Counted from the first letter of the stretch, positions 7,887-36,372 are shown. The stretch is 42,067 nucleotides of DNA from Myxococcales bacterium (GCA_027031935.1 JALVPF010000173.1:1-42067); one strand, 5' to 3'. Numbers and translations: made by a program. Notes: generated by a model not told the origin, from the letters alone.

Positions 7887-7913
7887 GGTCCTCCCCTGGG
7901 AGGACCTTTTTTT
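7887..7913 (+). terminator. Rho-independent terminator after etfA
   Basis: GGTCCTCC-cctg-GGAGGACC hairpin followed by T7. Confidence 0.85.
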
Positions 7914-7920
7914 ATCGGTG

Positions 7921-7948
7921 GGACACTTCGCAAGGGACACTTGGCAAG
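7921..7948. repeat. 14-bp tandem direct repeat
   Basis: GGACACTTCGCAAG followed by GGACACTTGGCAAG (13/14 identical). Confidence 0.8.
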
Positions 7949-8025
7949 CCTGGACAAAAACCATAAGCAGTGGCAGCATGCCATTTCTGAATTCAGAGAT
8001 AATGCTTGTACGGGAGAAAGGGTTT

Positions 8026-8931
8026 TTGAAACTCCAATACTCGATGCTTCGTATCCTTCTGTTGCTTTTAGTTCTTGAGGGCCAGGCCTTTGCCCTTGTA
8101 GGGGTGCACATCGAAAACCGGGTTGGGTGTCTGGATGATGCCGACCTGGAGAAGAGACTGGATATACTGGTAAAAAATAAGGGCGGGGATGGTCATTTGT
8201 CGGTCAGTGTGGTGATTGCACCGGCCATAGATGGCCTTGTGTTATCCCTACGTGTGGTCATGAATGCAACAGGCGAGGTGGTCCTGGATCGTACCTTCCG
8301 GCTCAAGCCGGAGGATTGTCCAGGTGCCAACGATCTGCTGTCTGTGGTGCTCGAGCAATTTCTTTCTACATTTCCACTCGAGGAATGGATACTCAAGACC
8401 AGCCCACCCAAACCACCTCCACCTGAAAAGATCTTTCTCACACGAGATGTGGCTGAACTTGCGGGTTCGGCTTCTGTTGCAGTGGACAGTCGTTGGCCAT
8501 ATCCGAGCGCTGATCTGGAACTTGCTGTGTCCATAGACGTGGGCTCTTGCCGCAATCGTCTCATAGGTAGCACGGCTATACGGATTGGCATTCCCCACGA
8601 GTTGGGTAGCGGCAGCTATCTCGAAAGCATGGGAATGCTGGGAGTAGGGTGGCGATATGCAAGCCGTGGGTGGATGCTGAGAGTGGAGGCGCGCACTGGA
8701 GGCCTGCTCGTCTCAGGATATGGTTATAACACAAACTACCACCGCTGGTTGCTATGGGTAGAAGCCCAGGTGGGCATGATGTGGCAATGGAAAGGCATTT
8801 TACTGGGACCCCAGATTGCGGTGAGCCCTCTTTGGCACCAGGTTGAGACCACAGCCGGTGTCAACAGGCAACTGCCTTGGTTGCGTGTGGGCGTAGTTAT
8901 AGGTTTTCCTTTCTGGTACAAGAAATTTTGA
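8026..8931 (+). CDS. Secreted hypothetical protein: N-terminal Cys-pair domain, Pro linker, predicted C-terminal beta-barrel (start 8026 TTG or 8044 ATG)
   Basis: Signal peptide MLRILLLLLVLEGQAFA, PPKPPPP linker, alternating strands, aromatic C-terminus (FWYKKF). The ORF-track start at 7879 would overlap the etfA terminator. Confidence 0.6.
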   Translation: MKLQYSMLRILLLLLVLEGQAFALVGVHIENRVGCLDDADLEKRLDILVKNKGGDGHLSVSVVIAPAIDGLVLSLRVVMNATGEVVLDRTFRLKPEDCPGANDLLSVVLEQFLSTFPLEEWILKTSPPKPPPPEKIFLTRDVAELAGSASVAVDSRWPYPSADLELAVSIDVGSCRNRLIGSTAIRIGIPHELGSGSYLESMGMLGVGWRYASRGWMLRVEARTGGLLVSGYGYNTNYHRWLLWVEAQVGMMWQWKGILLGPQIAVSPLWHQVETTAGVNRQLPWLRVGVVIGFPFWYKKF

Positions 8932-8955
8932 AGGTTTTCCGCTTTGCCGGGAAAT
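8929..8955 (+). promoter_or_regulatory. Candidate ECF promoter, copy 1
   Basis: TGAAGGTTTTC-N9-GGGAAAT directly upstream of the ECF sigma gene; matches the copy at 10401. Confidence 0.55.
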
Positions 8956-8988
8956 CATAGTTAATGGTCAACGATCCTGAGTCTTAAA

Positions 8989-9528
8989 ATGAGTGAATCG
9001 GCGAGCGAGGAACTGGATGTTGGAAGTCTCTACGTGGAGTATGGATCGTTTTTATCCCGTACTATCGAGCGTTTGACAGGCGCTGGCGGACACGTTGACG
9101 ATTTATTGCAAGAGACCTTTGTTACCGCCTTTCGCAAGCGCAAGAGCTACGATAGGACACGGGCAGCCCCTGCAACATGGTTATATGGTATCGCCGCCAA
9201 CTTGTGTCGGCGCCACCATCGCTCCGCCAAACGTCTGGCCACCCTGAAGGCGAAGTATGTGCTGGAACAAGTCGGCCAAGCGCAAACAAGGCCCGATCAG
9301 CTGGCAGAAGAAGCGCAACGGGTTCAGATGGTTTACGAGGTGATGCAGAAATTGCCTTTCAAACAGAGGGAAGTGTTCAGTCTGTATGAACTGGAGGCCC
9401 TTGATGGCAACGCCATTGCGTCCATGCTCGGAATACCTCTAGGGACGGTGTGGACGCGCTTACATCATGCCCGCCAGAGGTTTGCCAAGCTTATGCAAAC
9501 CAGGCTTGAAAAAGAGGGACTGGCATGA
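8989..9528 (+). CDS. ECF-family RNA polymerase sigma factor
   Basis: Region 2 (DDLLQETFV, TWLYGIAAN) and region 4 (LPFKQREVF..ELE, IASMLGIPLGTVWTRLHHAR); 179 aa. Confidence 0.93.
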   Translation: MSESASEELDVGSLYVEYGSFLSRTIERLTGAGGHVDDLLQETFVTAFRKRKSYDRTRAAPATWLYGIAANLCRRHHRSAKRLATLKAKYVLEQVGQAQTRPDQLAEEAQRVQMVYEVMQKLPFKQREVFSLYELEALDGNAIASMLGIPLGTVWTRLHHARQRFAKLMQTRLEKEGLA

Positions 9529-10394
9529 AAGAGATAGAAAATCCCGAAAGACTGATACACGATCCAAAGCTCGGCAAATGGCTTCGGCCGGCTGCAGATC
9601 GCATGTTGGAACCAGAACGTCTTTCCAGGTGCGCTCAGCTTATCCAGCAAAGGTTAGAGGAGACATCTCAAGCGAAAGGATCTTCCTGGTTTGACAGGAT
9701 TTTTTGGTCGCGCAGGATGATGCGGGCCGTGGTACCAGCTTTGCTCTTGATAAGTATATCCGTGGGCGCCACCTACCTGATCAGGGTCTTTCGCGAGCCT
9801 GAAAAGGTCAAGCCACCTGAGGCCAAAGCGGTGCTTGTGAAGATAAAGCACAAACCAAGACCCTTGCCCAGGCTGACTGATTTACCTGAACCACCAAAAC
9901 CGGATAAACCATCCAAGCTGGTGAGGAGAAGACCGAAAACATTAAAAGTGGCTCAAGTGCAAACCGAAGCAGCAGAAACGGTGGAATCCCATACCAGCCC
10001 CCAGAGTCAACTGCTTGAGCAACTTCGTCTGTTCAAAAAAGCCAAGTCGGCAGCAGATAGTGCTGATGTGGCTGGTGCTCTGTCTGCGCTCGACGAGTTG
10101 AAGCGCCAATTTCCCAAAGGTCCTCTTGGCCCGGAAGCAGGGCTGCTCAGGGCCAGGATTCTTTATCAAGCGGGTCATTTTCGGCAGGCGGCCCAATGCA
10201 TTGCTGCTTTGATCGATGATCCTTCCCTTGCTGGCAAAAAAGCGCATCTTTTCCGTCTATTGGGTGACTGCCATGTCCACCTGAAAGAGTGTGAAGCGGC
10301 GCGAGAGGCTTTTCGTCGTGCGTTGGGGCTTGGGCTCTCCGGCACAGAAGCCGATGAGGCAAGACGAGGAATAAAAAAATGCACCCGTCAGTAA
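9525..10394 (+). CDS. Single-TM protein with Pro/Lys linker and C-terminal TPR-like helices; probable anti-sigma factor
   Basis: ATGA overlap with the sigma gene; TM AVVPALLLISISVGATYLI; TPR-like ALDELKRQFPKGPLGPEAGLLRARILY and LLGDCHVHL...AREAFRRAL. Confidence 0.65.
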   Translation: MKEIENPERLIHDPKLGKWLRPAADRMLEPERLSRCAQLIQQRLEETSQAKGSSWFDRIFWSRRMMRAVVPALLLISISVGATYLIRVFREPEKVKPPEAKAVLVKIKHKPRPLPRLTDLPEPPKPDKPSKLVRRRPKTLKVAQVQTEAAETVESHTSPQSQLLEQLRLFKKAKSAADSADVAGALSALDELKRQFPKGPLGPEAGLLRARILYQAGHFRQAAQCIAALIDDPSLAGKKAHLFRLLGDCHVHLKECEAAREAFRRALGLGLSGTEADEARRGIKKCTRQ

Positions 10395-10400
10395 TTTTTT

Positions 10401-10427
10401 TGAAGGTTTTCTGTGTATCTGGGGAAT
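10401..10427 (+). promoter_or_regulatory. Candidate ECF promoter, copy 2
   Basis: TGAAGGTTTTC-N9-GGGGAAT in the gap before the RCC1 lipoprotein gene. Confidence 0.55.
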
Positions 10428-10460
10428 AAGCCATTAGACACAATAAACCTGGAGGAAAGA

Positions 10461-12944
10461 ATGCGTTTTATTATTGCCAGATATCATTGGATTTTTTCAA
10501 TAATTCTTCCACTTTTCCTGATGGCAGGCTGCGACACCGCTGTGGTGGGAGATGAACAATGTGGAAACGGGCTCCTGGACGACAAGGAGCTGTGTGATGT
10601 GGGAATTGCCTCAGGGCAAGGTAGATGTCCTGAGGAAGAAGATTGTGATGATGGATCTGATTGCACCATAGATAGCCTGTCAGGGCAGGATTGTATGGCC
10701 AGGTGTGAGCATGAAGCGATCACCGTGTTTGTTGACGATGACGGTTGTTGTCCTGAAGGTGCAGGGCCGGAGGATGATTCTGATTGTGGCGCTTGCGAAA
10801 ATGAGTGTTCAGCCTCAGGGGACACCGAGTGTACGGACGGTAGCTTGAGAACTTGTCTTTCTGACCAAAGAGGATGTTTGTACTGGGGTGAGTATGTTGA
10901 TTGCCCGGACAAGGCCTGTGATGGGGATGTGTGCTCCGGTTGCACACCGGACTGTGCAAACATGGAGTGTGGCATGGATCCTGTCTGCGGCAGCAGTTGT
11001 GGAGAATGCAGCGATGGAAAAGAGTGCGAAGACGGTCAGTGCGTTTGTGTACCGGATACCACAACCGGCTGTTACGACGGGGATGTGTATCACTTTGATT
11101 CCTGTGGAAATCCAGGGGATAAGCTAACAGATTGCTCCTATGGCTGTAGTGATGGTCAGTGTGACAATTGTACACCAAACTGCAACGGCCTCGAATGCGG
11201 TCCGGATCCCGTTTGTGGTATAAGCTGTGGACAATGTGATGTCGGACAGGATTGTAATATGGCTGGTCAATGCATATGCGATGTGGATTATCATTTATGC
11301 GGTGACAGTTGTGTCTCGGATTACTCTACACAAAGCTGCGGACAGAGTTGTACCTCCTGCCCTGATGATCCCCATGGCGTTGCCAACTGCGATGGCGAAA
11401 GCTGTGGCATAGACTGCGATGCTGACTATCACCTTTGCAATGGAACTTGTGCGTCAGATTATTCACCACAGAGCTGTGGACAAAGTTGCACGACCTGCCC
11501 TGATGATCCCAATGGCACTGCCACCTGCGATGGTACGAGTTGCGGTATTGAGTGCAACGCAGACTATCATCTTTGCAACGGAACTTGTGCATCAGATTAT
11601 TCAACTGAGAGCTGCGGACAGAGTTGTACTCCCTGCCCTGATGATGATCCCAATGGCGCTGCCACCTGCGATGGTACAAGTTGCGGTATTGAGTGCAACG
11701 CAGACTATCACCTTTGCAATGGCAGTTGTTTGTCAAGCCAAAGCACTGACCACTGTGGAAATCTCTGCAGTCCTTGTCCGGGTACGGAGCATGGCGCTGC
11801 AACCTGCGAAAATAATACCTGTGGGGTTGTTTGTGATGATGGATTTTTAAAAATAGACAATACCTGCCTTGCGGTATCTTCTATATCGCTTGGTAACGAA
11901 CATACATGTGCTCTTACCTCAACTGGCGGTGTAAAGTGCTGGGGTTATAACCTTAGCGGCCAACTCGGAGACGGATCTACCACAGTTAGGTACACGCCAG
12001 TGGACGTAGTTGGCTTGAGTTCCGGAGTAGTTGCGATCTCGGCAGGTTTTGAGCACACATGTGCTCTCACCTCAACTGGCAGTGTAAAGTGCTGGGGTTA
12101 TAACCTTAGCGGCCAACTCGGAGACGGTACAAGCACAGTTAGGCACACGCCAGTGGACATAGTTGGCTTGAGTTCAAATGTACAATTTGTCGCTATTTCG
12201 GGTGGTGGCTACCACACATGTGCTCTTACCTCAACTGGCGGTGTAAAGTGCTGGGGGGCTAATTATGACGGCCAACTTGGAGACGGATCTGACACAAATA
12301 GGTACACACCGGTGGACGTAGTTGGCTTGAGTTCCGGAGTAGTTGCGATCTCGGCAGGTTCTGAACACACATGTGCTCTTACCTCAACTGGTGGTTTAAA
12401 GTGCTGGGGGAATAATTCTTTCGGCGAACTCGGCGACGGATCTAACACAGTTAGGTACACGCCAGTGGACGTAGTTGGCTTGAGTTCCGGAGTAGTTGCG
12501 ATCTCGGCAGGTTTCGAACACACATGTGCTCTTATCTCAACTGGCGGTGTAAAGTGCTGGGGGGCTAACTATCACGGCCAACTTGGAGATGGTACTAGCA
12601 TCAATAGAGTTACTCCAGTGGATGTGTTTGGTTTGACATCAGGAGTATCTGCTGTTTCAGCTACTGGTGTTCACACATGTGTTCTTACCTCAACTGGCGG
12701 TGTAAAGTGCTGGGGGGCTAACTATCACGGCCAACTTGGAGATGGTACTAGCATCAATAGAGTCACTCCAGTGGACGTATTTGGCTTGAGTTCAGGAGAA
12801 GTTGCTGTCTCGATTGGTACTGAGCATTCTTGTGCGATTACAAGCACGGGCAGCTGCATGTGTTGGGGATTTAATGAAGAGGGTCCAATTGGAGACGGCA
12901 CAACAGCTGACAGACACACTCCAGTATTTGTTCTGGATCCCTAA
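10461..12944 (+). CDS. Cys-rich lipoprotein with C-terminal RCC1/BLIP-II-like 7-bladed beta-propeller
   Basis: SD GGAGG then ATG 10461; lipobox LMAG-C; Cys-rich stalk; seven H[TS]C...KCWG.N..GQLGDG...TPV blades. Confidence 0.85.
11278..11832 (+). repeat. About four tandem 138-bp (46-aa) Cys-rich repeats
   Basis: Unit [35 protein letters not shown]. Copy 3 has an extra Asp codon and copy 4 is divergent. Confidence 0.85.
11871..12941 (+). repeat. Seven RCC1-like blade repeats of about 50 aa, highly similar at DNA level
   Basis: Recurrent ACATGTGCTCTTACCTCAACTGGCGGTGTAAAGTGCTGGGG and TTGGCTTGAGTTCCGGAGTAGTTGCGATCTCGGCAGGTT. Confidence 0.9.
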
Positions 12945-13160: not shown

Positions 13161-13373
13161 AACAAAAGTCGATTGAAAAACAAGGGGTTAATTTTACTCA
13201 TTTGAAGTGTGCTCCAGATTGGTTCAACTAACTCGGAGCGTACTCCAAATCAGTTTAATATGCTTTCTAGCCAGTGCTCTCGATATTTATCTTTATGGAG
13301 CGCGAGCGAGAATGGAAATCCGGCGATGTGTGATTCTTGCCTACCTGGTGCAAGTCATGGTAAACCAGTTGAT

Positions 13374-14930
13374 ATGGCTGACTGGAATGAACTCTCGGAC
13401 TTGATGGTCATCAAGCGCCTTGCCCAGATAATCAACAATCGTTGGGGACTGGGGCTGGGGTTTGCAGACGCGGAGGGAAAGCTGGCCAAGGGGCCTGGCC
13501 TGGATCGCCTGGCCACATCCAGGCCTGTGTGCGATCTGCTGAAGTCTGTTCCAATGGGCAGGGCGCGGTGTGAAGCCGTGGCAGGCATGATAAACAAACA
13601 GCATGAAGAGGCGGGCGCGCCGGATGGACCAGCTTGTATACTGTGTCATGCCGGACTTTCAGAGTTTTACGTGCCGGTGCAGGTGGAAGGTGAGAAGCAG
13701 GGTCTCATTTTGGCAGGGGGTTTTCTGCGGGAAAAAGACCTGGAAGAACAAATAGACGAAGTGCTGCAGAGATGTGCAGATCTCCCGGTGGCCAAGGCCG
13801 AGCTGCGTCGCGCGTGCAAGAAAAGCCCCATCCTGAGCGCGGAATCAGAGGACTACATATCGGATTTGCTGGAGCTGGTGGTCAAGGAGATCTTTGTCTA
13901 CCAGGAGGAGGTTTCACGCAAGGAGCGAAGACTGGATCGGCTCACCAAGGAGATGGCCGAGAGGTCCAGCTATGGTCAGATAATCGGAAAGAGTGCTCCC
14001 ATGAGGGAGCTTTATCAGCTGCTGGACAGGGTTTCGGGTACAGATTCCACCGTATTGATCATGGGGGAAAATGGTACTGGAAAAGAACTGGTGGCCAGGG
14101 CCGTGCATTTCAATTCCAAACGCAAGGATAAGCCCTTTGTGGTTCAGAACTGCTCCGCTTTCAATGACAACCTCTTGGACTCGGAGCTTTTCGGTCACGC
14201 CAGGGGAGCTTTTACCGGCGCGGTGGGCTCCAAAAAGGGCCTCTTCGAAGTTGCTGACAAGGGCACTTTTTTTCTCGATGAAGTTGGAGAGATGAGCCCG
14301 TCTCTGCAGGTGAAACTGCTGCGTATATTGCAGGAGGGTACCTTCATTCCGGTAGGTTCCACAATGGAACGAAAGGTGGATGTCAGGATCATCGCTGCGA
14401 CAAACCGCAACCTCAAGCACATGGTGGAACAGGGGACGTTCAGAGAGGACTTGTACTATAGACTCAATGTGGTCACCATCAACCTGCCCTCCCTCAAGGA
14501 CCGCAGAGATGACATTCCCTTGCTCGTGGAACACTTTTTGGAAAAACACTCAGGAGAAGGCAAGGTAAAAAAACTTTCTCCTGCCTGCCTGCAGCGCATG
14601 ATGGATTATCACTGGCCTGGGAACGTAAGAGAACTTGAAAACGAGATAGAGCGATTGATCGTCCTTCGCGGCAGTGACGAAGTCATAGGAGAGGAGTTTC
14701 TCTCCCCTAGGATAAGATATGACATTTATCCCACATCGAAAGATGCTTCTCCCGAAACAGCACCCACGCTTCCCCAGGCCATAGAACTCCTTGAGCGAAC
14801 GATGATCCTGGACCATCTCAAGAGGGCGAGGTGGAACAAGACAAAGGCAGCCAAGGCCCTGGGGATTTCGCGTCGTAACCTCATAAGAAAAGTTCAGGCT
14901 TTCAATCTCGACAGAAGAAAAAACCGGTAG
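13374..14930 (+). CDS. Sigma54-dependent enhancer-binding protein with N-terminal PocR-like sensor and Fis HTH
   Basis: CHAGL...VPVQVEG...GLILAGG (PocR-like), GENGTGKE, ELFGH..GAFTGA, FLDEVGE, FREDLYYRLNV, WPGNVRELEN, AAKALGISR. Start at 13374 is inferred. Confidence 0.9.
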   Translation: MADWNELSDLMVIKRLAQIINNRWGLGLGFADAEGKLAKGPGLDRLATSRPVCDLLKSVPMGRARCEAVAGMINKQHEEAGAPDGPACILCHAGLSEFYVPVQVEGEKQGLILAGGFLREKDLEEQIDEVLQRCADLPVAKAELRRACKKSPILSAESEDYISDLLELVVKEIFVYQEEVSRKERRLDRLTKEMAERSSYGQIIGKSAPMRELYQLLDRVSGTDSTVLIMGENGTGKELVARAVHFNSKRKDKPFVVQNCSAFNDNLLDSELFGHARGAFTGAVGSKKGLFEVADKGTFFLDEVGEMSPSLQVKLLRILQEGTFIPVGSTMERKVDVRIIAATNRNLKHMVEQGTFREDLYYRLNVVTINLPSLKDRRDDIPLLVEHFLEKHSGEGKVKKLSPACLQRMMDYHWPGNVRELENEIERLIVLRGSDEVIGEEFLSPRIRYDIYPTSKDASPETAPTLPQAIELLERTMILDHLKRARWNKTKAAKALGISRRNLIRKVQAFNLDRRKNR

Positions 14931-14938: not shown

Positions 14939-16630
14939 TCAGGGAGATATGCAGGAACCTGAGTCCTGCCTGATTTCATGGGTCGATTTTACAGATGCCT
15001 GCTTTTTGGTGCTCGTGACTTTTGTTCTTGGATCTTCAGGGGACCACTCTGCGATGCTCTCTGTCTCCACCTTGCATCTTCCTTGGCAAGTGTAGTTGTA
15101 ATTGCTGTTGTAGTTCCAGCCCATGAGACTCGATGCTCCGCCACCGCGGGTGGTAACCAGAAAATCGTGATAAAGGTGTCCAAAGGAGTCTGCACGTTGC
15201 GCTTCGGTGGGCTTGTCCCCCCGGGAGGGATCTACCGGGATCCAACCGTAAGGAGGCAGGTAGACCTCCACCCAGCGATGGAATACGTCATCGTACGATG
15301 CGTCATCCCTTCGAACCACCAACGAACCGGAATACCTGGCAGGAAGTCCAGCGGCCCTGCACATGGCGATGAACACGAAGGAGTATTCCGAACATGAGCC
15401 GGAACCGCGCTCCAGCACCTTTGGCGCAACGTCCCAACCTCCCACCATTTCGTAATGCATTTTTTCATGTATATAGCCATAAATTTTTCTCGCTATCCAG
15501 TAGGGATTGCGTTCACGACCCACGGCTTCTTTTACCGCAGCACGTATTATGGGGCTGTGGATCAGATATTTGGATTCGTCTTTCAGGTATCGCCTGCGTA
15601 TGTTTGCAGGAATTTTTCCAAGGCTCTTTACCTTGTGCGGGTAGATGACATGGTGGACGGTCCATGCTCGAATCTTGGCCGTCATTTTTACGGTTGCCCA
15701 TTTTCCAGCAGGAAGGTCCTTGAATGTGAACACTGCAGCCTTCTGTCCCCACTGGTCCGATTTTTTCTTGAAATCTTTGGGCTCGAATGAGGGTCTCTCA
15801 AGCAACTCCTGCTCCGGGCTCTCTTCTGGTATGGCCACGAAAATATGGGCCTTGGGAACAGGATCGGGACCGAAATTTCTAAGCTGCGTGGTAAATACCA
15901 CCCACTCTTGCCTTGGATCAGTGCGGATCATGTGTGTGTCGTCATCGATGGAGGCAAAATAGACCTTGTCGGTCTGGTAGTCTGTCACAAGCACCTGGTC
16001 TTTGTATGCCGCAAGCCCGGAAGAATGAGGACCAGGCGCAGGCAAGGTCGCGATCACCTGTGCCGACGGGATATCAATGGCGTAGAGCTGATCGCTCAAC
16101 CTGTCGGCCACCCACAGGTACCTGCCATCAAAGGCCAGGCCGTCTACGCTCCTGGAAGGAAAGGGTATCTCGCTGATGGTGGTCCCGTCCTCCGGGTCCA
16201 CCTGGTGGATGGCTTTGGTGGCATCGTCCGAGAGCCAAAGGCTCTTTCCGTCGAAGGCCAGCGCATGGGGTGCTGGCACGGGAGAAGGAATGACCCTGGT
16301 GATGAGTCCGTCCGAGGTTCTGATACGGTACAACTGAGCAGAGGCTGTATCTGCGTTCCACAGTTGCTGTCCATCGAAGGCAAGGCCTGCCGGTCTGTAT
16401 CCCGGGCTCTTGATTTTGCGAACGACTCTTCCATCCGCAGGATCCTCGGCCATGAGCACATCAAGACCGTGATCCGAAAGCCACAGGAGCTTTCCGTCGA
16501 AGGCGGCTCCAGTGCAGGTCTTGAGTTTGGAAGGAAGTTCCTTCGTGACAGCGCCTGGCTCAGCATATACACTTGTGACAGTAGACATCAGAACCAGCAA
16601 CACTATCCAATAGTGGTAAACTTTCTTCAT
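14939..16630 (-). CDS. Secreted transglutaminase-like (Cys protease fold) protein with N-terminal beta-propeller repeats
   Basis: Signal peptide after SD GGAGGTGA; repeated GLAFDG..LW..D; triad GSCSEYS / HRWVEVY / VDPS. Confidence 0.85.
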   Translation of the reverse strand: MKKVYHYWIVLLVLMSTVTSVYAEPGAVTKELPSKLKTCTGAAFDGKLLWLSDHGLDVLMAEDPADGRVVRKIKSPGYRPAGLAFDGQQLWNADTASAQLYRIRTSDGLITRVIPSPVPAPHALAFDGKSLWLSDDATKAIHQVDPEDGTTISEIPFPSRSVDGLAFDGRYLWVADRLSDQLYAIDIPSAQVIATLPAPGPHSSGLAAYKDQVLVTDYQTDKVYFASIDDDTHMIRTDPRQEWVVFTTQLRNFGPDPVPKAHIFVAIPEESPEQELLERPSFEPKDFKKKSDQWGQKAAVFTFKDLPAGKWATVKMTAKIRAWTVHHVIYPHKVKSLGKIPANIRRRYLKDESKYLIHSPIIRAAVKEAVGRERNPYWIARKIYGYIHEKMHYEMVGGWDVAPKVLERGSGSCSEYSFVFIAMCRAAGLPARYSGSLVVRRDDASYDDVFHRWVEVYLPPYGWIPVDPSRGDKPTEAQRADSFGHLYHDFLVTTRGGGASSLMGWNYNSNYNYTCQGRCKVETESIAEWSPEDPRTKVTSTKKQASVKSTHEIRQDSGSCISP

Positions 16631-16821
16631 TGGTTCACCTCCCAATCCGTAATATCAGATGTATTGAACTTGAGCTGTGAAGCAATTGCAACATTTGCTT
16701 TTGGAAATGTCAGGCCTGTTTGCTAGCATCTTGCGTGACTTTGCATATTACAAGAGATCACGGTTGACTTGCTGTGCAGGATCGTGTTTCTATGACTCAG
16801 TTTTCAAAGGAGGCAAAAAAC

Positions 16822-17371: not shown

Positions 17372-18634
17372 CTATAGGCATCTTCCATCGGTACAGGCCA
17401 GGCCGTCCTGGCAGTCTGAATTACAAGAGCAGGCCAGAGGATCAAAACAGTAGCCATCCTGACACTGTTGGTCAGCCGGGCATTCCGAGTCTTCGCAGCA
17501 TGGGATCTTGCACTGTCCGTCCACACACTCTTGTCCAAGCTCGCAGTCGGAGTTGAATCTGCACTCGGGTGGAATTTCGCTCTGGTCCCTGCATACGCCG
17601 CAGTCACAAAACTGCCCGGCTTCACAATCCATATCCCCTTGGCACAGGTTTCGACATTGGGTGTCGACACAAATTTGTCCATCGGCACAGTCTGTATCAT
17701 GAGCACACTCAGGGTCCGGTCTGGGCTTGTCCACGCAGATGAAATCCTGGCAAATCTGGGCAGGTGGACAGTCGGCGTCGCCGCCACACAGGGCAGAGCA
17801 ATGGTTGTCTATGCATAACAGGTTCCCTTCGCACTCATCGGAAGAGGTACACGAATCATCCGGGCCTGGTATGCAGATGTGATCCTCGCAGAGCATGGTA
17901 TCAGGACAATCTGAATTCATCTGGCACAGGCTGGCGCAGGCGCCATCGATACACACCTGGGATCCAGGACAGTCCTGGGAAGAGCTACAGTCAACGGTGC
18001 TGGGATCTTCAGGCCGACAGGTGCCAGCGTCGCAGATTTCGCCCTCAGCGCAGTCTGCCTGGCTTGAGCATCCCGCAGGTACACAAGAACCATTGTGACA
18101 CGCCTGGCCTTGTTCGCAGTCGCTGTCGTCAATGCACTGGACCTGCACGCAGACCTGTCTGACACATATGTTCATCTCGGGACAGTCTTCGTCTGTTTCG
18201 CACATGGCAGGACTTGCATCCTGACAGGTGTTTTCTATGCAGAGTTCATCCGGTGCACAATCGTAATCGTTCCAGCAGCCGACTCCGTCAACGAACCAGC
18301 AGCTGTCACAGTCGCACTGGTAGCAGCCACCACTGTCACAGAACTGAGTCTGCTCGTTACACTGCTCCTCGCAGTAGCCTGCATAACATATCTCCCCGGC
18401 ATAGCAATCAGCGTCTGTCCAACACTCCTGATAACCATCGTCCACCGGGTAGCATCCATAGCAGTCGCATTCGTAACACGAATCATTGTCACAAAAGTAA
18501 TCGTAACAGTCGCCACAACCATCGTCATAGCAATCGTCCCAACAGTCGTCATCCAGGCAGAACGGACATCCGCTCAGACCGGCAGTCAGCGAAAACAAGA
18601 ACGCGGCCGCCAAAATGGTTTTCAGGATTTTCAT
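17372..18634 (-). CDS. Cys-rich repeat lipoprotein
   Basis: Lipobox LSG-C; 14 copies of C-x5-C-x5-C-x4-C; SD AGGAGG. Confidence 0.85.
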   Translation of the reverse strand: MKILKTILAAAFLFSLTAGLSGCPFCLDDDCWDDCYDDGCGDCYDYFCDNDSCYECDCYGCYPVDDGYQECWTDADCYAGEICYAGYCEEQCNEQTQFCDSGGCYQCDCDSCWFVDGVGCWNDYDCAPDELCIENTCQDASPAMCETDEDCPEMNICVRQVCVQVQCIDDSDCEQGQACHNGSCVPAGCSSQADCAEGEICDAGTCRPEDPSTVDCSSSQDCPGSQVCIDGACASLCQMNSDCPDTMLCEDHICIPGPDDSCTSSDECEGNLLCIDNHCSALCGGDADCPPAQICQDFICVDKPRPDPECAHDTDCADGQICVDTQCRNLCQGDMDCEAGQFCDCGVCRDQSEIPPECRFNSDCELGQECVDGQCKIPCCEDSECPADQQCQDGYCFDPLACSCNSDCQDGLACTDGRCL

Positions 18635-22003: not shown

Positions 22004-22064
22004 TCACATGATAAGAAACAACGTTCTTTTGGTGTCCATTTTAACAATTATGAGAGGTGAGAAA

Positions 22065-25000
22065 ATGAAGTCGATGCGCTTGATGGTTCTCTCTGTGGCT
22101 TGGGCATGCCTGTTACCCTTGTCGTTTTATGGATGTTCGGGCGGTGGGGATGATCTGGTTTGTATGCCTGATTCGTGCAGTTCCCATGGCGAATGTAATG
22201 ATTCCTCAGGTGAGATAGTGTGTTCGTGTGAGCAAGGATACACGGGCGCACATTGCGGAGCCTGCGCAGAAGGCTACCAGGACAACGATGGTGATGGCTC
22301 CTGTCTCGAAAGCTGCTCTGATGATTATTGCTCTGGTCATGGAACATGCAGCGATGCACAGGGTACTGCATCCTGTGAGTGTGAAGATGGCTATTCCGGT
22401 GAAAAATGCACGGATTGTGCGGATGGTTATCAGGACAACGACGAAGATGGAACCTGTCTTCAGTCCTGTGCTTCTCTTTCGTGGGACTGTGCCAATCACG
22501 GCTCTTGTGTGGATGATTCCGGGGTAGCCATGTGTCAGTGTGACTCTGGATACCAGGATAATGATGCAGATGGCACGTGTACGGAGGATTGCACAACCGC
22601 AGATCTGGAGTGTGGGGATCATGGCAGCTGCGATGATTCGGCTGGACAGGCTCAGTGTGCATGCGAAGAAGCATGGGGTGGTGATACCTGTGATGTCTGT
22701 GCGGACGGATACCAGGACAATGATGCAGATGGAACATGCGAGATAGCGTGTGGTGTTGGCGTCCTTGATTGCGGAGAACATGGTTACTGTGTGGACTCTT
22801 CCGGACACGTGGAATGCAAGTGCGTTACCGGACACACCGGTGATGACTGCTCCGAGTGTGCAGATGGCTATCAGGACAATGACGGTGACGGTGCATGCCA
22901 ACCCGGGTGCGATTTGTTCGGTGGTTCTTGTGGAACTCATGGACACTGTGATGATTCCACGGGTGAGACCATGTGCGTTTGTGATGAAGGACACATTGGT
23001 GATGATTGTGCTACCTGCGATGATGGCTATCAGGACAACAACTCTGATGGGTATTGTCTACCCACTTGTGAAACTTCCTCGTTGAATTGCGGTCAACATG
23101 GAGACTGCAGCGATTCGTCAGGTTTTGCTACATGCGATTGCCAGGAAGGATACGCAGGAGATTTATGCGATCTGTGCAGTGGTGGATATCAGGACAATGA
23201 TGGAGACGGCGTTTGCACTGTTGATTGTTTCCATGCAGACTTGTCATGCGGAAACAACGCCATGTGTGATGATTCGGAAGGCACTGCTGTATGTGTTTGC
23301 AACGAGGGCTATGCAGGAGACAATTGTGACACATGTGCTGATGGTTACCAGGACAACGATGACAACCAAACCTGTATGCCGACCTGTGGTCAGTTGGGCT
23401 GGGATTGTTCCAACCATGGTTCGTGTGATGATTCGGGCGGCATTGCCCTTTGTCAGTGTGATGAGCAATACACGGGCAGTCAGTGCGATCAGTGTGCTGC
23501 CGGCTATCAGGACAATGATGGGGATGGGGTTTGTTCTGTCGCTTGTTCAGCAGCGAGCTTGAATTGTGGAGCAAACAGCCACTGTGATGATTCCACAGGC
23601 ACGGCAGGATGTGTGTGCGATGATGGTTACGTTGGAGCAAACTGTGACCAATGTGCTGATGGCTACCAGGACACGGACATGAATGGTTCCTGCATGCCCA
23701 CTTGTGAAAGCCTGGCGTGGGATTGTTCCGGTCATGGTACATGTACCTATGAGTCGGGAGAAGCTGTTTGCGCCTGTGAAGAGGGGTATTTTGACGACGG
23801 CGTCGGTCATTGTATCGTTGTAGGTGCGGGTGAAAATTGCATGGCGCCTTTGCCCTTGGATCTTTCCCAGACGCTTGTAAGTGGTGACACCACTGGAATG
23901 GGAAACGACAATGAAGGCTCTTGCGCCAGCAGCAGCCACAGTGCTGATGATGTAGTGTACGTGTTTTCAGTGGTTCAACCACTTCACGTGGTCTTCGAGG
24001 TCACTGGCTTCGATACGATCATGTATATCAGAAGCACCTGTGATGATGCAGCTTCGGAGATCGAATGTAATGATGATGGAGGGGAAGGTCTGGGCTCTTT
24101 ACTGGATCTGAATTTATCTGTTGGAACCTACTACCTGTTCATAGATGGGTACTCTTCCGGTTCGGGCCAATACGATTTGAGCATACAGGTTTCCTGTGGA
24201 GACGGGCTTATTTATGATCCGCAGAGCGGTGATTGCATAGATGATCCCTGCCTGCCCAATCCGTGTAATGAGCAGAACATGCATGTTTGTGAACCCGTGT
24301 TGCCGGCGTCATTTACCTGCAGTTGTGACCCTGGCTATATCGACGATCCTCAAAATCCAGGTACCTGCATACCCGATCCCAATCCCCATGGTGAGGCCTG
24401 TGCTGATGCAATGCCTCTGACCGTTGGTGAGGGTACGCTTACCGGAACAACCTCTGACGCGAATGATGATGCCCGTGGATCATGCGGAGGCAATGGTCCT
24501 GATCGGGTGTATGGATTTGTCATAGACGAACCCATGAGAGCCGAGTTCGAGATGAGCGGTTACGACACCGTTTTGCACCTCCGAACTACCTGTGATGATC
24601 CCGACAGTCAGATTGCATGTGATGATGAAGGTGGATCTGCTCATGGCTCCAAGATTACCGAGATGCTGGATCCAGGTACATACTATCTCTGGGCGGATTC
24701 CTGGTCCAGCGGTGGCGACTACGACCTGACTTATTCTTTCAGGACAGATCCCTGTAATCCGGATCCGTGTCCTGGTACTCCCGAGTGTGTAGCATCGTTC
24801 GATTGGACTTCTTATGAGTGTGTATGTCCTGAAGGTACCCTTCCCTTTGATGGCGATTGTGTGGATGATCCCTGTGATCCAAACGAGTGCGTCGAGGAAC
24901 ACAAGAACAAGTGCATACCTGAGTTGCCAGGTGCCTATCATTGCGAATGCAACACAGGGTATATTCCCGACCCGGCAGCCCCTGATACCTGCATCATGGA

Positions 25001-26078
25001 TCCGGATGCCAACGAATGGGCCTTCATTGTCTATCTCAACGCGGACAACAATCTGGAGTCCTATGGATATGAGGATGTCTCAGAAATGGGTCAGGCTGGT
25101 TCGTCTCCATATGTTCACATCGTGGCTCTTTTCGATACATACGCAGGCCCGGCCAATGTCATCTATATTACCCAGGGCGGTTACGACGTGGTGGAAGAGC
25201 GAGGCGAGATCGACATGAGCGATTGGCAGACCCTGAGAGATTTCGGTATCTGGGCCATAGACAATTACCCTGCCCGCCATTATGCCATGATCATGTGGGA
25301 CCATGGTGGCGGCTGGAAAAAGCCCGTGGACAGCCCGGTAACCAAGGGCTTTTCCAACGATGACCATGGTACCGCTTACGAGATTTCAGTATCCAACGGT
25401 GATTATGCACAAGCCTTGGCCGGAATAACAGATCACCTGGGTGACAAGCTGGATATAGTTGGCTTCGATGCATGCCTCATGGGCATGTGGGAGGTTGCAG
25501 ATGCAAGCGCCCCTTATGCTCATTATCTCGTTGCTTCTTCAGAGACGGAGCCCGGTCGCGGATGGGCATACCATGGATTCCTGCCTGGCCTGGTGGCCAA
25601 CTGGCAGATGAGCGCGCTGGAGCTGGCCACGTCCATCGTTGATGCTTTCTACAACGAGGACGCAGGTGACTCTACTCTGGCGGTAACCGATCTGGACACC
25701 ATGGATGATCTGAATGCTGCTATCACGAACTTTGCCAATGTCCTGATGGCCCATCCGGACCTGTATGGCAGCATCAGCAGCGTCAGGGGATCCACTCAGT
25801 CCTTCTACCTGGAGGAGTTCAGGGATCTGCAGGATTTTGCAGAGCGGGTAGCAGCCATGAACGGTGCTCCTTCTGATCTGGTAGATGCGGCAAATGCATT
25901 GGTGGCTCAACTGCAGATCACTATAGCCTACAATCGCGCCCAGTCTGATTATCCTGGTGCCAATGGCTTGAGCGTGTACTTCCCGCAGAGAGGGACCAGC
26001 CCAGATAGCGAGTACACCGGTGCAGGTGCGGTCTGGAGTTTGCACACTACCTGGGATGAGTTCCTGGAATCTTTTTAA
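22065..26078 (+). CDS. Large lipoprotein: EGF-like repeats, two PPC-like domains, C-terminal clostripain (peptidase C11)
   Basis: Lipobox FYG-C; ten GYQDxx..C repeats; GTYYL...D domains; WAFIVYLNADNNL, WDHGGGW (His), GFDACLM (Cys), ASSETEP. Confidence 0.9.
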   Translation: MKSMRLMVLSVAWACLLPLSFYGCSGGGDDLVCMPDSCSSHGECNDSSGEIVCSCEQGYTGAHCGACAEGYQDNDGDGSCLESCSDDYCSGHGTCSDAQGTASCECEDGYSGEKCTDCADGYQDNDEDGTCLQSCASLSWDCANHGSCVDDSGVAMCQCDSGYQDNDADGTCTEDCTTADLECGDHGSCDDSAGQAQCACEEAWGGDTCDVCADGYQDNDADGTCEIACGVGVLDCGEHGYCVDSSGHVECKCVTGHTGDDCSECADGYQDNDGDGACQPGCDLFGGSCGTHGHCDDSTGETMCVCDEGHIGDDCATCDDGYQDNNSDGYCLPTCETSSLNCGQHGDCSDSSGFATCDCQEGYAGDLCDLCSGGYQDNDGDGVCTVDCFHADLSCGNNAMCDDSEGTAVCVCNEGYAGDNCDTCADGYQDNDDNQTCMPTCGQLGWDCSNHGSCDDSGGIALCQCDEQYTGSQCDQCAAGYQDNDGDGVCSVACSAASLNCGANSHCDDSTGTAGCVCDDGYVGANCDQCADGYQDTDMNGSCMPTCESLAWDCSGHGTCTYESGEAVCACEEGYFDDGVGHCIVVGAGENCMAPLPLDLSQTLVSGDTTGMGNDNEGSCASSSHSADDVVYVFSVVQPLHVVFEVTGFDTIMYIRSTCDDAASEIECNDDGGEGLGSLLDLNLSVGTYYLFIDGYSSGSGQYDLSIQVSCGDGLIYDPQSGDCIDDPCLPNPCNEQNMHVCEPVLPASFTCSCDPGYIDDPQNPGTCIPDPNPHGEACADAMPLTVGEGTLTGTTSDANDDARGSCGGNGPDRVYGFVIDEPMRAEFEMSGYDTVLHLRTTCDDPDSQIACDDEGGSAHGSKITEMLDPGTYYLWADSWSSGGDYDLTYSFRTDPCNPDPCPGTPECVASFDWTSYECVCPEGTLPFDGDCVDDPCDPNECVEEHKNKCIPELPGAYHCECNTGYIPDPAAPDTCIMDPDANEWAFIVYLNADNNLESYGYEDVSEMGQAGSSPYVHIVALFDTYAGPANVIYITQGGYDVVEERGEIDMSDWQTLRDFGIWAIDNYPARHYAMIMWDHGGGWKKPVDSPVTKGFSNDDHGTAYEISVSNGDYAQALAGITDHLGDKLDIVGFDACLMGMWEVADASAPYAHYLVASSETEPGRGWAYHGFLPGLVANWQMSALELATSIVDAFYNEDAGDSTLAVTDLDTMDDLNAAITNFANVLMAHPDLYGSISSVRGSTQSFYLEEFRDLQDFAERVAAMNGAPSDLVDAANALVAQLQITIAYNRAQSDYPGANGLSVYFPQRGTSPDSEYTGAGAVWSLHTTWDEFLESF

Positions 26079-28428: not shown

Positions 28429-29013
28429 TTAGTAACTCTTTTTTCTTCGTCTTTGTTCAGCTTCTGCCAGGCTCAATCTGCAACCACAATAGTCCTGCCT
28501 GTATAAACCGTATTTTTTTGAAAGCTCTACCGATAAGGCCTCTCCTGCTGCCTTCTTGAAACTTTCATTGCAATACTTGAGGCCATGATCGCTTGCCACC
28601 TGTTGTCCTATTCCCTCCAGAATTTTAGAATTCTTGTGTCTACTCAGGCTGAGAGTAGTGGTAAACCAATCGAACCCCAGCTCTCTTGACTTTCGGGCGG
28701 TATATTCCATTCTCAGATGATAACACGTCTGGCACCGTTCTTTAAAACTGCTTTCCGGTTGGTGTAAGTATGGTCCAACTGCTTGTTCCCAGTGTTCTGG
28801 CGTATATGGTTCTTCTATAATTTGAAGGTTTTTTATTTTAGCAAGGCGCCGGACTTCTTCCAGGCGTCGGTCATGCTCAGCCTGGGGATGGATGTTGGGA
28901 CCATACCAGTACAAGACAAGGTCAAACCGGGAAGAAAGCCTCACCACCGGCACCGTGGCACATGGTGCACAGCAAACATGTAAAAGCAGTTTGGTTTTTT
29001 GCTCGCGGGTCAT
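28429..29013 (-). CDS. queH: Epoxyqueuosine reductase
   Basis: LLLHVCCAPC, PNIHP..E..RR, RC..CY.LRM, FTTTL..S.HK, YRQDYCGC. Confidence 0.93.
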   Translation of the reverse strand: MTREQKTKLLLHVCCAPCATVPVVRLSSRFDLVLYWYGPNIHPQAEHDRRLEEVRRLAKIKNLQIIEEPYTPEHWEQAVGPYLHQPESSFKERCQTCYHLRMEYTARKSRELGFDWFTTTLSLSRHKNSKILEGIGQQVASDHGLKYCNESFKKAAGEALSVELSKKYGLYRQDYCGCRLSLAEAEQRRRKKSY

Positions 29014-30311
29014 TTCTTTGAAGAATTTTTACTTGCACCTTTTTCCTGGGGGGCCGTGGCGCCGAATCTTTCCCATGCCCTGAGATAATAGAGTGCAGTG
29101 CGTAACTGGAAATCACTAATCTTGTCCAGTTTTTTTCTCGTCTCGTCCTTGTGGCCTTCCCTGTGAAGGTGGCCATCGAGATCGGACTCTCTGGTAACAT
29201 GAATTTCGGTATCGCCCATGGGCGCACTTCGTGGCACCACCACGTCAGGGATTATTCCCTGTTCCTGTATGGATCTGTGGTTTGGTGTGTAATAGCGAGC
29301 GATGGTCAATTTGAGTCCCGATCCATCCTTCAATCCAACAACAGTCTGTACGGAACCCTTGCCAAAGGTTCTTACTCCCATGATCAAGGATCTTTTGTGG
29401 TCTTGCAAGGCACCGGCTACAATTTCAGATGCCGAAGCAGAGCCACCATTGACAAGGCACACCATGGGATAACGTGGTTCTGTGCCACGTCGATGTGCCG
29501 AGGAATAATCCAGTTTTTTGCTTCTGCCCCTGGTCTCAACGATGAGTCCCTCCGGGATGAAACGATCGGCCACTCTTATGGCTTGTTTCAACAGACCACC
29601 GGGATTGTTTCTCAGGTCCAGCACAAGTCCTTTTAGTTCGCCCTTGTTTCTTTTTTTCAGTTCTTTAAGTGCCTTCATCATGTAGTGTTCGGTACGTTCC
29701 GTAAACACCCGAATCCTTATATAGCCATAGCCGGGCAGCGGCAGATCGCTTTGGACCGGGTTGATTCTGATTCTTTGTCTTATAAGTACGAAGTCTTTCG
29801 GGTTTTCAAAGGTATCGCGATCGATGGTCAATACGACCTTTGTACCGGGCACCCCCTTTATTCGTTTTGTTGCTGCCATTACATCCATTTTCCGAACAGG
29901 CGCACCGTCTATTTTCACAATCTGATCTCCAGCCAGGATGCCGGCTCTTTTAGCTGGAGTGTCATCTATGGGTGAGACTACTACGAGCATTCCTTCTCGC
30001 ATCTCCAGTTCGATTCCCACACCACCGAAATTTCCGGAGGTGTCTTCCTGCATGGAACGAAACTCATCTGGTGTCATGAAGGAAGAATGTGGATCAAGGG
30101 TTTTGAGCATCCCGCGTATGGCCCCATAAATGATTTTTTGTGAATCCACCTTGTCCACGTACGAGTTTTGGATGTACTGCAGGACCTGGGCGAAAACATC
30201 CAGCTTCTTGTACGTATCATCCGGCGCAGCAAATGCGCTTCCGGCCACAAATAAAAAAAGCAAGGCTGTTACCGTGGTGGATTTGAAAAATCCATAAGCT
30301 GTGTTTTTCAT
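29010..30311 (-). CDS. ctpA: Carboxy-terminal processing protease (S41, PDZ)
   Basis: LDPHS, FGGVGI, LDLRNNPGG, SASASEIVAGALQD, FGKGSVQ, RYYTP, GIIPD. Confidence 0.95.
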   Translation of the reverse strand: MKNTAYGFFKSTTVTALLFLFVAGSAFAAPDDTYKKLDVFAQVLQYIQNSYVDKVDSQKIIYGAIRGMLKTLDPHSSFMTPDEFRSMQEDTSGNFGGVGIELEMREGMLVVVSPIDDTPAKRAGILAGDQIVKIDGAPVRKMDVMAATKRIKGVPGTKVVLTIDRDTFENPKDFVLIRQRIRINPVQSDLPLPGYGYIRIRVFTERTEHYMMKALKELKKRNKGELKGLVLDLRNNPGGLLKQAIRVADRFIPEGLIVETRGRSKKLDYSSAHRRGTEPRYPMVCLVNGGSASASEIVAGALQDHKRSLIMGVRTFGKGSVQTVVGLKDGSGLKLTIARYYTPNHRSIQEQGIIPDVVVPRSAPMGDTEIHVTRESDLDGHLHREGHKDETRKKLDKISDFQLRTALYYLRAWERFGATAPQEKGASKNSSKK

Positions 30312-35226: not shown

Positions 35227-36372
35227 TCATGATGGCTTCATCCTTACCCATGCAAGGGGATCCACTGCCTTGCCACCCTTTCTGACTTCAAAGTACAGGT
35301 AGGCACCTTTGAGAGAGCCGCTGTCACCGACGGTTCCCACCTGTTGACCCTGCTGTATTCTTTGTCCTTTTCTTACATCTAGTTGATCGAGGTGTGCATA
35401 CAGAGTGTAATAGCCACCTCCATGATCTAGTATGACCAGCCGTCCATAGCCTTGAAAGACTTTGGCAAAAACAACCTTGCCAGGATAGACCGCTTTTACG
35501 GGTGAGTGCATGGGAGCGCGGAGATCTATACCGGTATGAATCGTGACGGTTTTGAACCTTGGGTCGATCTGCTTGCCAAAGGCTACCTCCAGGACAGGTG
35601 AATCAACAGGGCTTGGCAAGCGGCCTTTCCATGTGGCAAAGCCCTTTGCACTGCTGGGTTTGCCTTCCATGGTGGCAACAAGTTCCAACAAGCTTTTTCT
35701 GGCATGACGGAGTTCTTTCAGCGCTCGGTGATGCAGTACCGCTTTTTTATGCAAAAGATCAAGTGCGCTGAGTTTTTCTTCCCGGGCGGCTTCTGCTGCC
35801 TCTTTCTTTTTTTTCAGTTGCTGTCGTGTCTGTTCCAGGGATTTGCGCTGCTGGCGAATCTTTTTCTGGGTTTCCCATAGACGGTCACGGCTTATGACGA
35901 CGTTTTCATACAGTTGCTGATCTGCCTTGGCAAGATGCTCAATGAGATCATAGCGCTGCAATCCTTCTGAAATCGACTCGGAACTGAAGATGAGGTTCAA
36001 CCAGCCTACATCTCCTTGCATATAGAGAATGCGCAATCTTTTTTTGAGTCTTTTCTTTAGCAAATCCAGGGACACAGAGGCTTGTCGTTGCTGAATCCTG
36101 GATTTTTCCAGTTCCATTTCCAGTTCGTCCATACGTGCTTGCGTCTCCTGGAGTTGCTTGTTGGCTTCTTCGAGTTCTGCATCCAGCTTTCCCATTTCTC
36201 CCAGCAAGGACGTGGATTGCCTCAGGAGACGTCTATACAACTTTTGGCTTTTTTTCAGGTCTTTTCCAAGCTTGTTCAGATCGTCCTTAATGGGATTGGT
36301 CTTTTGAGCATATACTTCGGGTACGCAGAGCATGAATGAAAAAAGAAAAAGAATTAAACCGCGCCCAGTCAT
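35227..36372 (-). CDS. envC: EnvC-like murein hydrolase activator (coiled coil + M23/LytM)
   Basis: Signal peptide, long coiled coil, HTGID, GYG..VILDHG, TLYAHL, YLYFEVR; downstream of ftsEX. Confidence 0.85.
   Translation of the reverse strand: MTGRGLILFLFSFMLCVPEVYAQKTNPIKDDLNKLGKDLKKSQKLYRRLLRQSTSLLGEMGKLDAELEEANKQLQETQARMDELEMELEKSRIQQRQASVSLDLLKKRLKKRLRILYMQGDVGWLNLIFSSESISEGLQRYDLIEHLAKADQQLYENVVISRDRLWETQKKIRQQRKSLEQTRQQLKKKKEAAEAAREEKLSALDLLHKKAVLHHRALKELRHARKSLLELVATMEGKPSSAKGFATWKGRLPSPVDSPVLEVAFGKQIDPRFKTVTIHTGIDLRAPMHSPVKAVYPGKVVFAKVFQGYGRLVILDHGGGYYTLYAHLDQLDVRKGQRIQQGQQVGTVGDSGSLKGAYLYFEVRKGGKAVDPLAWVRMKPS

Follow-up and report, generated by a model that had tools for sequence, protein, structure and literature searches.

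How could a sigma factor of the extracytoplasmic function (ECF) type respond to the outer membrane when its operon encodes no TonB-dependent receptor? The question is raised by four genes at positions 8026-12944 of a 42,067-nucleotide stretch of DNA from a Myxococcales bacterium (GCA_027031935.1 JALVPF010000173.1:1-42067), the whole of which is called the window below. An earlier reading of the DNA, made without database searches (the sequence-only reading), had proposed a trans-envelope signalling module of four co-oriented genes. The four open reading frames (ORFs) are indeed present there, all on the + strand, and are referred to as genes 1-4. Genes 1, 2 and 3 encode an exported protein with a predicted eight-stranded barrel, an ECF sigma factor and a single-pass membrane protein with a tetratricopeptide repeat (TPR) head, and they form a trio whose order is conserved in other genomes. 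Complex modelling supports docking of the TPR head on the N-terminal domain of the barrel protein. We consider it moderately probable that the trio is an envelope-signalling switch, in which a bridge made by the products of genes 1 and 3 controls the sigma factor across both membranes.

Conservation of the trio

A protein search (41 relatives) placed homologues of gene 1 in three genomes, including that of the window. The two other genomes contain six loci, four of them in one genome, and tblastn found homologues of gene 1, the sigma factor gene and gene 3 in the same order at six of six. A word-indexed protein search with gene 1 returned only six relatives. The profile of gene 1, compared with 1.84 billion representatives, matched 223 clusters with E≤1e-3, a number that falls to 135 and 87 at the tighter thresholds of 1e-10 and 1e-30; the lengths are mostly 280-330 aa. 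The 223 clusters define an unannotated protein family that has neither a Pfam nor an NCBIfam model. The Atlas neighbours of gene 1 are unnamed clusters, among which Myxococcota, probably the phylum of the window, is the commonest. By profile search the family is present in 53/401 genomes and 40/154 genera of this phylum, these counts being a floor owing to a stricter first look.

The gene order was computed from a set of loci for which 40 places were fetched at E≤2.9e-10 outside the genomes G000, G005 and G028. All weaker places were excluded, as were partial matches at contig ends or on fragments (G121:C186, G121:C818, G102:C25, G148:C10 and G348:C28:2976-3431). Local hidden Markov models (HMMs) identified a sigma factor gene directly downstream of gene 1 in 43 of 46 loci outside the window, and a gene 3-like protein next in 33 of the 46. 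Four further loci end at a contig edge, and in four loci without a match to the gene 3 HMM (L060, L063, L068 and L079) the ORF at position +1 looks by eye like a single-pass membrane protein. Such recurrence in the loci of other genomes means that the arrangement is not due to chance. The conserved unit is the trio of gene 1, sigma factor gene and gene 3, and the operon is probably conserved in Myxococcota. The sequence-only reading had made its proposal depend on co-occurrence of the genes elsewhere, and within the phylum this co-occurrence is wide.

The sigma factors of the trios are also related to each other. Gene 1 occurs once in the genome of the window, which also contains about 20 ECF-like ORFs besides the sigma factor of the trio; that sigma factor scores 294 bits, compared with 120 for the next ECF-like ORF. 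On a quick tree of 60 sigma factors the trio label changes five times, versus a mean of 17.1 for shuffled labels (0/500 shuffles were as low), hence the trio sigma factors cluster; 14 of the 16 other sigma factors from the window's genome fall in one separate clade.

Two atypical gene calls were encountered. Locus L063 (G108:C4) has two tandem gene 1-like ORFs at 7984-9761 (-) upstream of one sigma factor gene. The 368-aa protein P0033 matches positions 10-231 of gene 1, while its C-terminus resembles that of a sigma factor (...LHHARKSFKK...); the call may result from a frameshift or from a fusion of gene 1 and the sigma factor. A longer, fused form of gene 1 was looked for and none was found, which is weak evidence.

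The sigma factor and its putative anti-sigma factor

Gene 2 (8989-9528, + strand; 179 aa) encodes an ECF (group 4) sigma factor that consists of sigma-2 and sigma-4 domains only. The scores of PF04542 (Sigma70_r2; 56.6 bits, cut-off 24), PF08281 (r4_2; 49.7, cut-off 25.7) and TIGR02937 (74.2, cut-off 42.9) are all above the thresholds. The closest solved relatives are RpoE, SigE and SigL. All NCBIfam equivalog and subfamily models scored far under their cut-offs, the best being PRK12513 (84.5 versus 206).

Gene 3 (9525-10394, + strand; 289 aa) encodes a protein with a predicted cytoplasmic N-terminus (residues 1-67) that contains the invariant residues P7, R9 and L10. It is followed by a single hydrophobic transmembrane helix (residues ~68-89), a Pro/Lys-rich linker of about 65-68 residues (~90-155; 18% Pro, 25% Lys+Arg) and a periplasmic head (9990-10391, + strand; residues ~156-289) with three TPRs, a conserved C256 and a C-terminal Cys. 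PF13432 (TPR_16) matches this protein at 35.2 bits with a cut-off of 32.7. Among solved structures, the gene 3 profile matches designed and consensus TPR proteins (up to 1.1e-30) and, with less significance, the TPRs at the N-terminus of BamD (2.3e-5), as well as YbgF. An Atlas search with residues 1-95 gave scores of at most 0.87 and was uninformative. Because of the gene order, the 4-nt overlap of genes 2 and 3, the single transmembrane helix and the conserved N-terminus, gene 3 is likely to encode the anti-sigma factor of gene 2, and we refer to it as the putative anti-sigma factor.

Fold and location of the barrel protein

Gene 1 (8026-8931, + strand; 301 aa) starts with a TTG codon downstream of a GGAGAAAGGG stretch, in a reading frame that is open from 7879. 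The protein belongs to no family in Pfam (0 families at E≤0.01) or NCBIfam. A signal peptide (residues 1-23, with cleavage between ..QAFA and LVG) is followed by a periplasmic N-domain (8095-8397, + strand; residues 24-124) of the beta-alpha-beta-beta-beta-alpha type with C35 and C98, a Pro-rich linker (residues 125-143), which is a low-confidence part of the model, and, at the C-terminus, an eight-stranded barrel (8455-8928, + strand; residues 144-300). The AlphaFold2 model, built from a 12-sequence alignment, has a mean predicted local distance difference test score (pLDDT) of 84.3, and most 10-residue blocks of the barrel are above 90.

The top Foldseek matches of the model in the PDB are the transmembrane domain of OmpA (E 7.2e-6), NspA, Ail and OmpX. 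The VIA-align scan, which is independent of Foldseek, gave Z 16.2 for NspA (root-mean-square deviation (rmsd) 3.0, 145 residues aligned), and 15.8, 15.5, 14.8 and 14.1 for the OprF N-barrel, OmpA, PagL and OmpW, respectively. On the predicted model, the product of gene 1 is thus a small outer-membrane barrel with eight antiparallel strands and a hydrophobic exterior. Over 51 family members, hydrophobic residues make up 62-89% of one face of each barrel strand, and the opposite face is polar and rich in Gly, a pattern that fits a narrow membrane barrel. The loops at one rim of the model have 4, 2, 5 and 19 residues, which leaves scant space for a surface receptor site. The protein ends in ...GFPFWYKKF, with F as the last residue, and an aromatic residue is among the last three in 35/104 full-length family representatives. 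From the fold and the strand faces we infer that the gene 1 product resides in the outer membrane. C35 and C98 are invariant among closer relatives and at least 90% conserved among 51 diverse members, and they would form a disulfide in the periplasm.

The domain assignments of the sequence-only reading for the first three genes therefore hold: AlphaFold2, Foldseek and VIA-align agree on a small barrel with an N-terminal Cys-pair domain, three models above cut-off identify the ECF sigma factor, and the inner-membrane protein has the single helix, the linker composition and the TPR family expected of it. The same reading had named failure of the 8026-8931 product to fold as a barrel as grounds for abandoning the proposal; an eight-stranded barrel is predicted, and its top matches are outer-membrane barrels.

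Predicted docking of the TPR head on the N-domain

The evidence that connects genes 1 and 3 comes from modelling residues 150-289 of gene 3 in complex with residues 24-128 of gene 1, with a 14-row alignment per partner. This pairing had been suggested for modelling by the sequence-only reading. The interaction prediction score from aligned errors (ipSAE) was 0.74, 0.80 and 0.73 (median 0.74), as compared with 0.27 for the best control and 0.01 for the other two. The pLDDT of the partners was at least 77, and contacts were at least 71% alike between runs. The benchmark mark for such models, reached by 116/157 solved complexes and 2/215 mismatched pairs, is only a rough guide here because the alignments are our own.

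On the gene 1 side the modelled interface comprises the end of strand 4 and helix alpha-2 (residues 86-116), and on the side of the TPR head it comprises residues 158-170, 200-214, 234-245 and 275. Within the N-domain of gene 1, conservation is higher at the interface than elsewhere (entropy 1.97 versus 2.69, Mann-Whitney p 2.7e-4). Two invariant residues, neither of them Cys, belong to the interface: R89 of gene 1 (51 sequences) and E204 of gene 3 (14 sequences). R89 with helix alpha-2, and E204 with the concave face of the TPR head, make the docking interface tractable for studies of how a signal passes across the periplasm.

The tethers of genes 1 and 3 combined have 65-125 residues (mean 88) and, if extended, would be long enough to span the periplasm. 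In a mirror-tree comparison of 14 related modules, which provides a lead only, the highest correlation with the TPR head of gene 3 was that of the gene 1 barrel (rho 0.74), compared with 0.52 for the N-domain and 0.52 for the sigma factor. This correlation hints that the TPR head may in addition recognise the barrel, or the C-terminus of the barrel in unfolded form. In BamD, the N-terminal TPRs that are matched by the gene 3 profile bind substrate.

Proposed mechanism and its weighing

The switch that we favour would operate as follows. The gene 1 product would be exported and anchored in the outer membrane by its OmpA/OmpX-type barrel with almost no surface loops, while a Pro-rich tether, about 20 residues long, would hold its disulfide-bearing alpha/beta domain in the periplasm. 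The gene 3 product would sit in the inner membrane, its short cytoplasmic N-terminus sequestering the ECF sigma factor and its three-repeat TPR head projecting outward on the Pro/Lys-rich tether. By binding helix alpha-2 of the N-domain, the TPR head could complete a non-covalent bridge that reaches from the cytoplasm to the outer membrane. If this contact were lost or altered, gene 3 would be exposed to proteolysis and the sigma factor freed, which would turn on the operon, including the large lipoprotein gene downstream. Outer-membrane damage, altered envelope spacing and barrel misassembly are candidate triggers.

Several observations weigh against this mechanism. The complex model supports binding of the TPR head to the N-domain and is no measurement of it; the control in which gene 3 was replaced still reached an ipSAE of 0.27, and the interface residues of gene 3 are no more conserved than the rest of the TPR head (1.92 versus 1.97, p 0.29). 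Nor do the tether lengths of genes 1 and 3 compensate for each other (rho -0.07). For gene 1, there was no match to the outer-membrane barrel models of Pfam, and only 18/104 full-length representatives end in F, W or Y, hence the canonical C-terminal beta-signal appears not to be general in the family. For gene 3, the profile search of solved structures yielded TPR proteins only and no anti-sigma domain, and residues 1-67 lack the HxxxCxxC motif of the zinc-binding anti-sigma (ZAS) type, C36 being their lone Cys. Three of the 46 loci (L054, L061 and L077) have a gene 1 homologue without a sigma factor gene. Finally, no common ECF-type promoter was found upstream of gene 1 across loci: a two-block k-mer count in 38 upstream regions gave GC-rich noise only, and inspection and alignment of the upstream regions of close loci revealed no common -35/-10 motif.

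The alternative that survives best is an ordinary pair of ECF sigma factor and anti-sigma factor, with the barrel protein and the lipoprotein as co-transcribed outputs, that is, envelope cargo rather than a sensor. The TPR contact, if real, would then serve the assembly or tethering of cargo. Target genes are commonly found within ECF operons; the four genes appear to be co-transcribed, as a convincing terminator was looked for inside the block and none was seen; and the barrel, with its short rim loops, shows no visible signal-binding feature. Against this explanation stand a barrel gene that is always upstream of the sigma factor gene, down to about 20% identity, a modelled interface that lies on the most conserved surface of the N-domain, and a trio that is constant while the downstream cargo varies. 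We judge it unlikely.

Gene 4 and the variable downstream lipoproteins

Gene 4 (10413-12944, + strand) begins 18 nt after gene 3, with Met17 at 10461 as the likely start. By sequence reading it has a signal peptide that ends in a lipobox, LMAG-C, of the form [LVI][ASTVI][GAS]C, with Cys40 at 10530-10532. The lipobox is followed by the motif DTAVVGDE (10533-10556, + strand), which has the form C-x(2-6)-[VIL]-G when counted from the lipidated Cys. Further downstream are three tandem 138-nt (46-aa) repeats of a Cys-rich stalk (11319-11729, + strand) and about six tandem 153-nt RCC1 blades (5.9 units; 11898-12812, + strand) that make up a propeller head. The head matches PF25390 at 422.8 bits (cut-off 150), and RCC1_2 was detected in seven stretches. 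The fourth gene thus encodes the stalked propeller lipoprotein that had been predicted. As a member of a four-gene module, it fared differently from the conserved trio, since an RCC1 propeller follows the trio at only some loci and the position is held by a variable lipoprotein. Among nine proteins encoded downstream of trios, Pfam identified two with RCC1, one each with Kelch, a PQQ-like propeller, a right-handed beta-helix and NHL, and three without a family.

The N-terminus is shared by these lipoproteins. The motif C-x(2-6)-[VIL]-G follows the lipidated Cys, often as C-[DEQ]-x-x-[VIL]-V-G-D; it is CDTAVVGDE in the window and CDNAIVGDE, CQDVLVGGG, CDTVLVGDD and CGDALVGND at other loci. A lipoprotein-like ORF starts 600-2600 nt downstream of the sigma factor gene in 27 of the 34 loci that have at least 2000 nt beyond it. 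The loose form of the motif is present in 16/27 of these ORFs and in 42/750 lipoprotein-like ORFs of the window's genome (Fisher 8e-13), and the strict form in 11/27 and 11/750, respectively (Fisher 5e-12). A single lenient regular expression defined lipoproteins in both sets; it is crude, misses true cases and accepted one spurious ORF in L011. Through this common post-lipobox motif the gene 1 family is tied to large, variable propeller lipoproteins, and in these bacteria the motif may serve as a signal by which lipoproteins are sorted or recognised.

Some genomes contain three or four paralogous trios (L009-L011 and L013 in G005; L045, L046 and L048 in G090). Each has a differing downstream ORF, mostly a large lipoprotein, where it can be read (L048 reaches the contig end). 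The different ORFs suggest that the module was duplicated as a whole and its cargo head exchanged. A motif-bearing lipoprotein near another ECF sigma factor, on contig C125, was considered and rejected, as it adjoins an unrelated pair with a zinc-motif anti-sigma factor.

These data bear on another explanation, according to which the trio is a circuit for monitoring or display of one lipoprotein: each trio would read the post-Cys segment of the adjacent large lipoprotein, C-x(2-6)-[VIL]-G, and report on, or assist, its delivery to the outer membrane or the cell surface. The frequency of downstream lipoprotein-like ORFs, the enrichment of the motif, its occurrence on heads of different kinds (RCC1, Kelch, PQQ-like and beta-helix) and the genome where four trios are each followed by a different ORF are all in its favour. 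On the other side, eight-stranded barrels of the OmpA/OmpX type are too narrow for a translocon, and 7/34 loci have no lipoprotein-like ORF by the regular expression used. In our view this circuit is improbable.

We speculate on a combination that seems possible but doubtful, in which the trio would be portable and act as an 'envelope ruler and cargo checkpoint'. The barrel and the TPR head would form a clasp, each copy dedicated to one giant surface lipoprotein read via C-x(2-6)-[VIL]-G, and either failed delivery or outer-membrane damage would free the sigma factor. Were this so, the input would be cargo-specific, unlike that of any known ECF system, and the trio would be an independently evolved, non-covalent counterpart, in a second phylum, of the Dma proteins discussed below.

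Alternative readings of the barrel protein

A further explanation places gene 1 in the periplasm as a soluble sensor, with a ToxR/VtrA-like alpha/beta domain and a ligand-binding barrel similar to VtrC/ToxS or to lipocalins and YceI, which would bind a small molecule and then the TPR head. Three observations are in its favour: the N-domain matches the periplasmic domain of VtrA, from the VtrA/VtrC complex, at Z 8.8 (rmsd 2.5, 80 residues aligned); soluble eight-stranded barrels (avidins, YceI) match gene 1 at Z 8-10; and terminal aromatic residues are scarce in the family (18/104). Yet the soluble barrels reach only these values, while outer-membrane barrels score far higher (Z 14-16.2) and are at the top of both fold searches, and Gly is abundant on the polar face of the strands, as would be expected of the tight interior of a membrane barrel. 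HPF/RaiA-type proteins match the N-domain as well as VtrA or better (Z up to 10.3), so the likeness to VtrA reflects a common fold; the scores of the N-domain are middling, and the predicted alpha/beta arrangement is a common one. The soluble-sensor explanation therefore appears very improbable. Signalling of the TonB-dependent FecA-FecR-FecI type has the same overall logic of outer-membrane protein, inner-membrane regulator and ECF sigma factor, but its probability is close to nil, as it is ruled out by domain content: gene 1 has no Pfam family and gene 3 only TPR-type families, a Pfam search of the module proteins found no TonB-dependent receptor, plug, STN or FecR domain (the absence of receptor and FecR domain having been anticipated by the sequence-only reading), and the barrel has 8 strands, not 22.

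Locus boundaries and neighbouring genes

A strong terminator-like hairpin with an 8-bp stem and a T-run (7887-7906, + strand) lies between gene 1 and etfA of the upstream etfB/etfA pair, and marks the upstream boundary of the module. The 120-nt leader of gene 1 contains two copies of the direct repeat GGGACACTT, 14 nt apart (7920-7942, + strand), which, as read from the sequence, is a candidate promoter or operator element. At the closest orthologous locus (L009) GACACTT occurs once upstream, and a motif common to more loci was not found.

Directly downstream of gene 4, at 13209-14930 (+), is a gene for a sigma-54 activator that starts with a PocR sensory domain (Sigma54_activat 237 bits, PocR 59.8 bits), which could be a second regulator of the neighbourhood or be unrelated. 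Two further envelope proteins are encoded by this region, in which large exported proteins with many disulfides are frequent: one is secreted and combines propeller-like repeats with a transglutaminase-like core (14939-16645, -), and the other is a Cys-rich lipoprotein with six DUF7107 repeats (17372-18634, -). A long Cys-rich stalk with a functional head is seen again in the 1356-aa product of 22008-26078 (+), where a C11 clostripain-family peptidase domain (157 bits) comes after many epidermal growth factor (EGF)-like repeats. A CtpB/S41-type PDZ protease (29010-30311, -) is separated by about 5 kb, including a CotH-like gene, from an M23 peptidase and FtsX (35227-37355, -), a cluster of the division type. 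The distance to the module is about 16 kb, and we see no reason to suppose that the protease cleaves gene 3. At its start (71-1828, +) the window encodes a protein of the TIGR04551 family (551 bits, cut-off 300) that has no Pfam family.

Comparison with known systems

The sequence-only reading mentioned similar triads in myxobacterial genomes but no mechanistic description of them. For myxobacteria this stands, as we found no paper describing one, with the proviso that the ECF-group supplement, of which a part was available, may mention one. It does not stand in general, because a published analogue exists in the Dma proteins of Bacteroidota.

More distant parallels are provided by RcsF-OmpA/OmpC-IgaA and sigma-E/RseA/DegS, through which the state of an outer-membrane protein is reported to an inner-membrane regulator. 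A similar relay is proposed for the trio, although the proteins, folds and output regulators are different and the trio has a dedicated barrel encoded together with its sigma factor. The FecA-FecR-FecI system resembles the trio in that the periplasmic N-domain of an outer-membrane protein contacts the periplasmic part of an inner-membrane regulator of a sigma factor; the trio differs in having no TonB-dependent transporter, plug, STN or FecR domain, and in its eight strands with minimal loops.

Among myxobacterial proteins, DdvA is a large anti-sigma factor with a periplasmic TPR-CHAT domain, in contrast to gene 3, which has only 289 aa and a bare three-repeat head. In Myxococcus xanthus, the ECF sigma factor DdvS is paired with the transmembrane anti-sigma factor DdvA (PMC11506125), as we propose for genes 2 and 3. 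DdvS/DdvA, by contrast, regulates a defence island, and the available part of that report mentions no barrel partner.

In the part of the ECF-group supplement that was available (PMC7826278 supplement), ECF35 (SbrI/SbrR) has an anti-sigma factor at +1 with one transmembrane helix and, in some members, periplasmic TPRs. Gene 3 shares the +1 position, the single helix and the periplasmic TPRs, which does not imply placement of gene 2 in ECF35, and the same part of the supplement describes no conserved barrel protein at -1 for that group. The supplement also lists ECF21 subgroups in which anti-sigma factor and barrel are encoded separately, at +1 and +2.

Among described systems the closest is Dma, a dual-membrane anti-sigma family of Bacteroides that controls an ECF21 sigma factor and is stated to be restricted to Bacteroidota (PMC10927553). 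By analogy, the trio would be its two-piece counterpart. The arrangement in Dma, an ECF sigma factor under an inner-membrane anti-sigma element that a long disordered tether connects across the periplasm with an eight-stranded outer-membrane barrel, would also be that of the trio, where the anti-sigma element is putative and the barrel and the link are predicted. Dma is one polypeptide, whereas here the barrel and the putative anti-sigma element are encoded by two ORFs (genes 1 and 3), and no single chain of the module combines the N-terminus, helix, tether and barrel. The barrel gene of the trio is upstream and encodes a signal peptide of its own as well as a globular domain with a Cys pair, the trio has a TPR head and belongs to another phylum, and the link between the membranes would be a non-covalent contact of TPR head and N-domain, as predicted by the complex model. 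The gene 1 barrel has no Pfam match to the Dma barrel family OMP_b-brl_2, for which an Atlas search gave a lead at 0.85 only. Dual-membrane control of an ECF sigma factor has so far been demonstrated for the single-chain Dma proteins only; a widespread two-protein form in a second phylum would make the coupling of barrel and anti-sigma factor a recurrent solution for sensing the outer membrane.

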